From a virus, in IMG/VR virus record IMGVR_UViG_3300035698_033253: a DNA stretch of 36,816 bases; one strand, given 5' to 3'. Below, in pieces: positions 16,768 through 18,575 of this stretch. Made by a program: the position numbers and the translations under genes. The number at the start of each line of letters is the position of its first letter. Positions within the stretch are counted from its first letter, which is position 1. The notes under the pieces were generated by a model. It did no database searches. It was not told the origin of the DNA and saw nothing but the letters and a program-made list of their open reading frames with translations.

Positions 16768-17745
16768 ATGCCAGATTTCCCAAAAGAATTCGTGCAACAT
16801 AAATGTCCCAAGGTTGCAGACGCCAAGGAGCAATGCAAACATTGGACTGAAAAAGCACTATCAGAGGAAGATGCCTGTGATTATGCCGAATGTGCCTTTG
16901 TTCCATCTGGCATTGGGATGAAATGCGAAAACTGCGAATGTTATCTTCATCCTGGAGATGTGCATTATGATGCAGTTAAGCAATACTATGACCAGGAAAA
17001 TCAAATGATCGACCCCACCCCAGAAATGATTGCTTTTTATGAACGCCGCACCCAAGAACATATTGAACGTGTTCGTCGGTGTTTGTTGGTGGTGGCTTCA
17101 GTTGATGAAAAATGTGACGATGAGTTTGACAAACGAGCGTTAGATCATGACGCATCTAAATTTAGTGACGAAGAACGTACGCCATACATTTGGCTTACTG
17201 AATTTCATCGTTGCCTACGTGAAGATATTCCATTTACCTACCCAGATGGAATGAATGATCGTGTTAGTAAAGCCATTGACCATCATATGTCTGTAAATCG
17301 GCACCATCCAGATTTTCATGCTGAACCTGATGATATGTCGGATATGGATATTGTCGAAATGGTTTGTGATTGGACGGCAATGGCTCAAGAATTTAATGAA
17401 GGTAGCGCTCGGGGTTGGGCAGATAAAACAATAGGTAGTCGTGTTAAATTCAACAGCAACAGACGAAAGTTTGTTTATGATACAATCGACTTGCTTGATT
17501 CATTGCAACCAATGTTAAATGTTAAATTGGGTATGGATCGTAAAGAAGTAATAGATGTTGCAGGAGAGCCAGATGCCAAAGGTGGTACATCACGCAAACA
17601 CCCAGTTCCTTCTGTTTTCAAATATGGAAATATAGAATGCCATTTTGAACCATGGAAAAGTGGGGCTTTGTGTATGATCTGGGATGATAAAAACGAAAAA
17701 ATTATGGAAAAGAGAGCTTTACAAACTCCAGAGTCTAGAGTATAA
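16768..17745 (+). CDS. hypothetical protein (325 aa), Cys/His-rich
   Basis: Multiple CxxC / HH clusters (CENCECYLHPGDVHYD, DHHMSVNRHHPDFH), suggesting metal binding. The 3' end lies inside a 41-bp direct repeat. Confidence 0.55.
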   Translation: MPDFPKEFVQHKCPKVADAKEQCKHWTEKALSEEDACDYAECAFVPSGIGMKCENCECYLHPGDVHYDAVKQYYDQENQMIDPTPEMIAFYERRTQEHIERVRRCLLVVASVDEKCDDEFDKRALDHDASKFSDEERTPYIWLTEFHRCLREDIPFTYPDGMNDRVSKAIDHHMSVNRHHPDFHAEPDDMSDMDIVEMVCDWTAMAQEFNEGSARGWADKTIGSRVKFNSNRRKFVYDTIDLLDSLQPMLNVKLGMDRKEVIDVAGEPDAKGGTSRKHPVPSVFKYGNIECHFEPWKSGALCMIWDDKNEKIMEKRALQTPESRV

Positions 17746-17830
17746 TAGAAGAGTTAAGACCAAAACAGGACAATAAATAGGAAACAGAAAGAGAGCTTTA
17801 CAAACTCCAGAGTTCAGAGTATAATAGAAG
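17711..17830 (+). repeat. 41-bp direct repeat (2 copies, 17711-17751 and 17790-17830, 2 mismatches), each carrying an AGAGTATAATAGAAG promoter-like motif
   Basis: Copy 1 includes the last codons and stop of the gene at 16768-17745; copy 2 lies 38 nt downstream, immediately before the ncRNA candidate. Confidence 0.9.
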
Positions 17831-17834
17831 AAAT

Positions 17835-18575
17835 TGGGAGGTTGCAAGTGAACGAACCTCAAGCGTCTATTAAAAGCCCATTGGGCTTATGATCTTTGAA
17901 AATTTGAAACATTAGAACCATCCCCTTTGTCGCCGGGGATGAAAAAATCTGTTTGCTTAGGACTGGGCAACAGACCGCAAGGATAGGCGAGAGGTCGTGA
18001 AGGACAGCCCTTCGGGGTTGAAAGGTTCATTCCTTTCTAACTACACAATGAGACCGCCAGATAAAGAGGTCGCACTCGGAAACTGGTAAGTAACCAAGGG
18101 CATGGGTCTCCATAAAGCGAATTGGAGAATTACTGTCTGGATGATAAGCGGATTGTGTGTGCTTATCGCATAACGGTCTAGGATATTATATTTATCCACA
18201 ATTTATGATAATAAATCTCCTGGAAAATGACCGAGATTCGTCAAGGTCATAAAGCATACGTGTGGGATAGTAGAAGTGCCTACGATAGACGGCGCAAGCT
18301 GTTTATGCTGCCCGCAAGGGGTTAGTTGGAGCAACTTCCAGGGTTGCGAAGATTGACGGGTTAGTGAAAAGTTAGCGACGGTTGACTTGATGCAAGCCTA
18401 GAATGCTACCTACACTACTACGTGCCGTTCCGTGATGGAGACATCGAGAACGGGGGTGAATACGGTGAAGGGGTTTAGATCCCGTGTGCAGACCAGATGG
18501 AGTTAGAAATAATGTTGATCTCTGGGGTCACCGTAGTAAGGAATAGATCTTGTGCTAACGCCTTACATTTTTTGG
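17835..18575 (+). ncRNA. candidate large structured non-coding RNA (~740 nt; class undetermined, possibly GOLLD/ROOL-like)
   Basis: Longest ORF-free stretch in the window and visibly GC-richer than its flanks. Multiple stable tetraloop hairpins (CCC-UUCG-GGG, CCC-GCAA-GGG, CC-GCAA-GG, AGCCC-AUU-GGGCU). Preceded by duplicated TATAAT-containing repeats and followed by a hairpin plus U-tract near 18536-18574. Confidence 0.45.

Follow-up and report, generated by a model that had tools for sequence, protein, structure and literature searches.

A candidate folded RNA of about 0.75 kb behind tandem promoters in a huge-phage-like genome piece

The locus and its tandem promoters

The IMG/VR record IMGVR_UViG_3300035698_033253 is a 36,816-nt piece of a huge-phage-like genome, referred to here at its full length as the window, in which almost all genes lie on the + strand. 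An initial annotation made by eye had proposed that a segment behind a duplicated promoter encodes a large structured RNA, perhaps a member of the GOLLD or ROOL class. We analyzed this segment, hereafter the stretch (17746-18749), which begins at the end of a gene for a DUF5662 protein and extends to the next real gene, whose ATG is at 18750. The candidate region precedes a tRNA-Met gene by 2 kb and a tRNA array by 4 kb, and a gene for a major-vault-protein-like (MVP-like) protein lies 2.6 kb upstream of it. The features of the locus are the following.

16768-17745, + strand: DUF5662 protein gene, stop codon at 17743-17745
17709-17752, + strand: copy 1 of a direct repeat, promoter P1 (-35 TTTACA at 17718-17723, -10 TATAAT at 17741-17746)
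17788-17831, + strand: copy 2 of the repeat, promoter P2 (-35 at 17797-17802, -10 at 17820-17825)
17832-18574, + strand: candidate structured RNA core (~743 nt), non-coding, with several GNRA/UUCG-capped hairpins
17848-17892, + strand: 14-codon upstream open reading frame (uORF) with a GTG start, GGAGG 6 nt upstream
18536-18574, + strand: weak terminator-like hairpin (6-bp stem, 19-nt loop with the palindrome AGAUCU at 18546-18551, a candidate kissing site, then A+U6)
18575-18749, + strand: rest of the untranslated stretch, reaching to the next gene, with the ribosome-binding site (RBS) AGGAGG at 18737-18742
18750-19217, + strand: gene for a 155-aa protein that has a signal-like segment at its N-terminus and ends in a Gly/Tyr/Arg-rich (RGG/YG-like) repeat tail
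20605-20679, + strand: tRNA-Met, the final gene ahead of the nearest strong terminator downstream of P1/P2
20867-20894, + strand: strong terminator, a 12-bp GC-rich hairpin followed by T7

The duplicated segment, which had been given as 41 bp, measures 44 nt; its two copies (17709-17752 and 17788-17831) are 95% identical and 79 nt apart from start to start, and copy 1 overlaps the DUF5662 gene, whose final 37 nt and stop codon it covers. Both copies carry TTTACA-17 nt-TATAAT, which agrees with the sigma-70 consensus at 11/12 positions, so the promoter-like motif recognized by eye is indeed present in duplicate. In copy 2 the -10 element is found 10 nt before GGGAGG (17836), in agreement with the spacing described originally, and the predicted transcription start of P2 falls at about 17832-17834. 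We observed that TTTACA-N17-TATAAT occurs six times in the window, as compared with 0.05 expected from shuffles, always on the + strand and either between genes or at a gene end (4559-4587, 6115-6143, 17718-17746, 17797-17825, 22417-22445 and 36389-36417). The dinucleotide AG follows the motif in five of the six copies, and weaker copies are located at 30530 and 34568. This distribution indicates that the motif is the phage's own strong promoter type; given this sixfold recurrence, confined to one strand and to such positions, two genuine phage promoters can be considered to face the region. The motif, TTTACA-N17-TATAAT(AG), is the firmest by-product of this analysis, and it defines transcription units in this genome.

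The stretch is non-coding in all six frames. Its first 751 nt (17746-18496) are the window's longest run free of open reading frames (ORFs) of at least 70 aa on either strand, which agrees with the long ORF-free segment reported at the outset. TAA, TAG and TGA are all present in every + frame (17-29 stops per frame), and therefore the reassignment of any one stop opens no frame. When codon usage was scored with the window's own genes as the training set, all six frames gave negative values between ~17600 and 18680, with a recovery in the flanking genes, and tblastx revealed no similarity of the stretch to the remainder of the window or to ~1 Mb of related loci. The initial annotation had named a real gene with a non-ATG start or a frameshift as the finding that would overturn its proposal, and the stops, the codon scores and tblastx all speak against such a gene. 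The only strong Shine-Dalgarno and start pair inside the stretch belongs to the uORF at 17848-17892, which would occupy the extreme 5' end of the predicted P2 transcript and ends just past an AAGCCC-AUU-GGGCUU hairpin.

The GC content of the stretch is 46.1%, in the top 7% of same-size windows and above the window mean of 39.5%. The enrichment relative to both flanks that had been claimed holds for the upstream flank but not for the downstream one, since the following 2 kb are equally GC-rich (44-50%). The whole island from 17.8 to 20.7 kb is GC-richer, and therefore the enrichment is not specific to the stretch.

Hairpins and predicted folding

The four hairpins named in the initial annotation, as well as the hairpin and U-run that follow them, are all present in the sequence. 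They are listed here together with the best-defined predicted domain.

17875-17887, + strand: AGCCC-AUU-GGGCU hairpin, seen in the sequence
17975-17982, + strand: CC-GCAA-GG hairpin, seen in the sequence
18008-18017, + strand: CCC-UUCG-GGG hairpin, seen in the sequence
18260-18415, + strand: best-defined predicted domain, a multi-branch junction closed by GUGUGGG/CCUACAC
18311-18320, + strand: CCC-GCAA-GGG hairpin, seen in the sequence
18536-18574, + strand: GUAAGG...CCUUAC hairpin followed by AUUUUUUG, seen in the sequence

Hairpins with a stem of at least 4 bp and a GNRA or UNCG cap are strand-specifically enriched, six being found on the + strand as compared with one on the - strand. When only non-overlapping hairpins were counted, the + strand retained five, as compared with 1.29 +/- 1.10 in dinucleotide shuffles, a count that was reached in 41 of 5000 shuffles (p ~0.008). 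The whole-window maximum of these counts is found in windows that overlap this region.

The folding energy of the 745-nt core corresponds to a z score of -3.75; with 40 shuffles this whole-region score is -4.16, the lowest of 23 same-length + strand segments. The thermodynamic signal exceeds that of the coding controls only moderately, and the reverse strand gives a similar z. Many helices in the predicted fold of the region have a pair probability >0.9. The domain at 18260-18415 is predicted to contain four internal hairpins, two of them with GCAA loops, and helices with pair probabilities of 0.8-0.99; they include many G-U pairs, which exist on the + strand only and would be mismatches on the other. 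A long-range pairing of 18235-18255 with 18706-18727, just upstream of the RBS, is also predicted (p ~0.6). Taken together, the evidence for RNA structure is moderate.

Possible readings of the stretch

We tentatively favor the reading that the stretch gives rise to an orphan, promoter-driven folded RNA of ~0.75 kb outside all described families, a possibility that we would place a little short of an even chance. According to this reading, 17746-18749 would be transcribed on the + strand from the two tandem copies of the phage's strong sigma-70-type promoter, and the product would probably be a folded RNA of ~0.75 kb extending roughly from 17832 to 18574. Its 3' end could be released either by partial termination at the weak hairpin and U-run at 18536-18574, or by processing of a ~3 kb transcript that includes two small genes and tRNA-Met and ends at 20867-20894. 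By analogy with GOLLD and ROOL only, it might act as an abundant phage-made structural RNA of the translation/tRNA neighborhood.

A further step, which we consider less likely, is that this RNA is the first member of a new ~0.75 kb class of huge-phage structured RNA, made in quantity from tandem promoters and either GOLLD/ROOL-like or the RNA part of a particle. The downstream Gly/Tyr/Arg-rich protein and the upstream MVP-like shell protein would then be candidate partners. If true, this would add another, unrelated RNA class from huge phages of environmental bacteria to the GOLLD/ROOL set, and would be a new case tying large phage RNAs to tRNA regions. The present value of the candidate is limited: it is a single sequence with moderate statistics, and not separable from a long leader or spacer DNA.

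Several results weigh against a folded RNA of this kind. A blastn search of INPHARED (50,697 phage records) returned nothing, with only chance matches at E<=10; exact scans of IMG/VR with a 23-mer and a 20-mer were negative; and a 20-mer scan of the metagenome collection gave three chance matches, to GC-rich bacterial genes. Across 63 loci (~1 Mb), nhmmer and blastn recovered the query itself only, as did a single-sequence covariance model of 18260-18415 run on 51 sources. Covariation is zero by default because no homologue was recovered, and phages with 55-61% identical neighboring proteins have no comparable gap within +/-10 kb, the gaps that they do have being occupied by tRNAs or tmRNA. 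Regarding the structure, the significance of the tetraloop enrichment is modest (p ~0.01), the whole-segment z of coding segments reaches -4.06, -3.43 and -3.07, and local 150-nt z scores, which range from -1.8 to +0.7, do not improve on the flanking coding sequence. In addition, the terminator scan found no strong terminator between P1/P2 and 20867, and hence no clear 3' end. With a modest structure signal and nothing comparative, the candidate is weaker than the initial annotation had estimated.

The lack of a strong terminator bears directly on a second reading. The hairpin and U-run noted at 18536-18574 do exist, but with a 6-bp stem and a 19-nt loop the hairpin is a weak terminator at best, and it was not listed by the terminator scan. 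The clear terminators of this phage are long, perfect, GC-rich hairpins with 12-15 bp stems (4513-4542, 8443-8475 and 20867-20894), the first of which sits just before the promoter at 4559. Transcription from P1/P2 likely ends at the last of these (20867-20894). The simplest map of this transcription unit runs from P1/P2 through the 0.9 kb stretch, the 155-aa gene, a hairpin at 19463-19563, a 189-aa gene and tRNA-Met to the terminator. Because no strong terminator precedes the downstream genes, this map can equally well be read with the stretch as a long, structured 5' leader to the cassette downstream, within one ~3 kb P1/P2 transcript. Such a leader would control stability, translation or premature termination, and a candidate mechanism involves the 14-codon uORF together with the hairpin at which it ends. 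The strong Shine-Dalgarno sequence of the uORF, the position of its end at the terminator-like flagged hairpin 17874-17888, the predicted pairing just upstream of the RBS, and the presence in the 155-aa gene of a good RBS (18737-18742) but of no detected promoter of its own are all consistent with a leader. However, 0.9 kb would be extreme for a phage leader, no riboswitch or leader family matched at E<=10, the uORF may be due to chance, and the RBS-proximal pairing is of moderate probability only. All things considered, we regard a long leader as unlikely, though it deserves serious attention.

A third reading, which we regard as improbable to a similar degree, is that the stretch is non-functional spacer or decayed sequence in a recently acquired, GC-richer cassette (~17.8-20.7 kb), in which case recombination would have left the promoter duplication as a scar and most of the hairpins would be due to chance. 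The island has 44-50% GC as compared with 39.5%, a low gene density and orphan genes, and it may be an acquired cassette; the stretch has no homologue in any collection searched, its local folding z equals that of the coding controls, and the adjacent DUF5662 gene looks host-derived, with 66-70% identity to Planctomycetes proteins. Against spacer DNA stand the strand-specific tetraloop enrichment (p ~0.01), the whole-region folding z, which is the lowest in the window, and the two intact copies of a strong promoter that point into the stretch; moreover, decayed sequence is argued against by the absence of any trace of protein similarity or codon bias. The left edge of the island (17800-20700) coincides with the duplicated promoter and its right edge with the strong terminator at 20867-20894.

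In huge phages, stop codons are in some cases reassigned. A hidden protein gene, whether recoded, frameshifted or with an unusual start codon, is nevertheless very improbable here, given the 17-29 stops of all three types in every + frame, the negative codon scores and tblastx result, neighbors that read normally in code 11, and the lack of a suppressor tRNA among the 17 tRNAs.

According to the last reading, the stretch would be a divergent representative of one of the known large RNA families (GOLLD, ROOL, HEARO, OLE, raiA, tmRNA, RNase P RNA, or a group I/II intron). Large ornate phage RNAs such as GOLLD and ROOL are few and of unknown function. A phage setting beside tRNA genes is typical of both (PMC5737381, PMC12286853), and RNAs of this type were recently shown to form RNA-only cages (PMC12286853). 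As in those cases, the stretch lies in a phage-like genome near tRNA genes (17 tRNAs from 20605), and related phages have a transfer-messenger RNA (tmRNA) in the equivalent tRNA region. A shared phage/tRNA context alone does not make the stretch a member of GOLLD or ROOL. Using cmscan on the whole window at gathering scores, we detected tRNAs only. When 17600-18800 was searched against all 4227 families of Rfam 15 at E<=10 with permissive filters, two noise matches were obtained (ES173, E=1.2; SNORD93, E=6.9), and an Rfam search over the rest of the cassette gave nothing. Neither GOLLD (RF01998) nor ROOL (RF03087) gave a covariance-model match at gathering scores or at E<=10, so the suggested membership was not borne out, and RNase P RNA, HEARO, OLE and raiA were likewise rejected, with no Rfam model match on 17600-18800 at E<=10. 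Neither ARAGORN nor the Rfam tmRNA clan revealed a tmRNA in the window; the same tools do find the tmRNA of the related locus L022. Group I/II introns were discarded as they gave no Rfam match and there is no split host gene: the upstream gene is closed by a stop codon of its own, and the downstream one has a separate RBS and signal peptide at its start. These results coincide with the first inspection by eye, in which no tmRNA, RNase P or group I/II signature had been recognized. The hairpin at 18425-18453 was also considered as an intron domain V; the likeness is loose, its bulges are on the wrong strands, and the AGC triad is absent. We therefore find membership in a known family scarcely credible, and both this reading and hidden coding are essentially excluded.

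The favored reading, an orphan folded RNA, can be compared with four known systems. Like GOLLD RNA, the candidate is hundreds of nucleotides long, phage-borne, located beside tRNA genes and rich in stable hairpins; in contrast to it, it has no model match at E<=10, no recognizable conserved 3' domain and no homologues. With ROOL RNA it shares a similar size (~0.6-0.75 kb) and the phage/tRNA-neighborhood setting, but there is no model match and the environmental lineage is another one, the DUF5662 neighbor of the candidate being nearest to Planctomycetes. The P1/P2 arrangement of bacterial rrn operons also consists of tandem strong sigma-70-type promoters ~80 nt apart, followed by structured non-coding RNA and tRNA before a terminator; here, however, the promoters form a 44-nt duplication that is nearly exact, the RNA and the tRNA are separated by two protein genes, and there are no known processing sites. 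Finally, the PeSL elements of T4-type phages similarly combine a repeated promoter at the edge of a compositionally distinct segment of orphan genes with a strong terminator at its end, whereas here there is only one repeat pair, whose copies stand next to each other instead of on either side of the cassette, and no sign of mobility was obtained.

Genome context, relatives and minor observations

The 155-aa gene contains an internal 57-nt repeat (18834/18891), and no homologues or family matches were found for its product. In the 364-nt intergenic gap that follows, an imperfect hairpin of 100 nt (19463-19563) has 45-nt arms that are 82% complementary; it matches only microRNA-precursor models, well below gathering scores, and these matches reflect hairpin shape alone. 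Elsewhere in the window, the following genes were identified.

NAD-dependent DNA ligase
Sigma factor
JAB, ThiF and E2-like proteins
SAM synthetase
12665-15238: 857-aa MVP-like protein with MVP shoulder and repeat domains
Radical-SAM protein
Several glycosyltransferases
From 20605 onward: 17 tRNA genes (Rfam and ARAGORN)

The MVP-like protein has homologues both in many metagenome-assembled genomes of bacteria and in huge-phage contigs, which reach 735 kb (LR756501); >3000 proteins match at E<=1e-30. The phage contigs that carry these relatives measure 100-735 kb, and one of them also has a T4-type capsid gene. The core of the DUF5662 protein is 66-70% identical to Planctomycetes proteins, which hints at the phage's host group. 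Its homologues share the core domain only, and most of them are host genes of Planctomycetes in bacterial contexts without an RNA. The last ~150 nt of the DUF5662 gene (17600-17745) have a negative codon-usage score and the C-terminal 80 residues of the protein have no counterpart in any homologue; this tail may have arisen recently, as the gene extended into the promoter region.

Searches with the neighboring proteins showed that a close relative of this phage is absent from IMG/VR, where the best identities were at most 41% for the MVP-like protein, 56-61% for the radical-SAM protein and 45-47% for the DUF5662 protein. No relatives of the 189-aa and 155-aa proteins were found in that collection, and a concatenated query of four small neighbors gave no return, its candidate list probably being swamped by low-complexity words. 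A scan of GTDB genomes with the MVP-like protein yielded distant genes only (<=41% identity). The same phage, at 99.8-100% identity, is present in ENA ERZ27315476 and JGI 3300005918, as short contigs outside the stretch. In the literature that we found, no RNA of this kind is described.

The closest relative, locus L013 from the protein collection, has an MVP-like protein that is 63% identical and the same ThiF-MetK-MVP gene order. Its contig stops ~950 nt after the MVP gene, and this end is non-coding; at 10559-10939 it contains three tandem promoter-like repeats (GGGGTTGACACGGAAACGGAAATCGCTAAAAT) with TTGACA-N17-TAAAAT, ~85 nt apart. These repeats, which follow the MVP gene at a short distance, parallel the tandem promoters of the window and count in favor of the folded-RNA reading. 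Relatives of the MVP-like protein at 55-58% identity are not syntenic downstream. Among the radical-SAM relatives (L020-L023, 56-61% identical), the gaps hold tRNAs or tmRNA. Two gaps were evaluated as homologous regions and rejected, that of L001, which contains a tmRNA, and that of L009, which consists of AT-rich small ORFs.

The tmRNA of L001 (~5400-5750, recognized by eye) lies directly upstream of that phage's DUF5662 gene. In L022, the tmRNA is located in the tRNA region (16381-16742; Rfam, 98.5 bits), and a 151-nt match to the tRNA model at 14485-14635 may be a tRNA gene with an ~80-nt insertion or intron. In the window itself, the tRNA calls differ between tools at 21977-22055, 22446-22522, 22526-22598 and 27383-27469: three ARAGORN calls (Trp, Gln and Asn) are under the Rfam gathering score, and the Rfam tRNA at 27383-27469 is missing from the ARAGORN list. 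The promoter motif at 22417 abuts the tRNA-Gln called by ARAGORN.

The phage genome also encodes a ubiquitin-like conjugation set (6224-8064 and 31175-32011), in which a JAB peptidase gene adjoins a ThiF/E1-like gene and a weak E2-like match lies 23 kb away. The ORF at 23997-24383 contains a perfect 30-bp tandem duplication (24038-24097).

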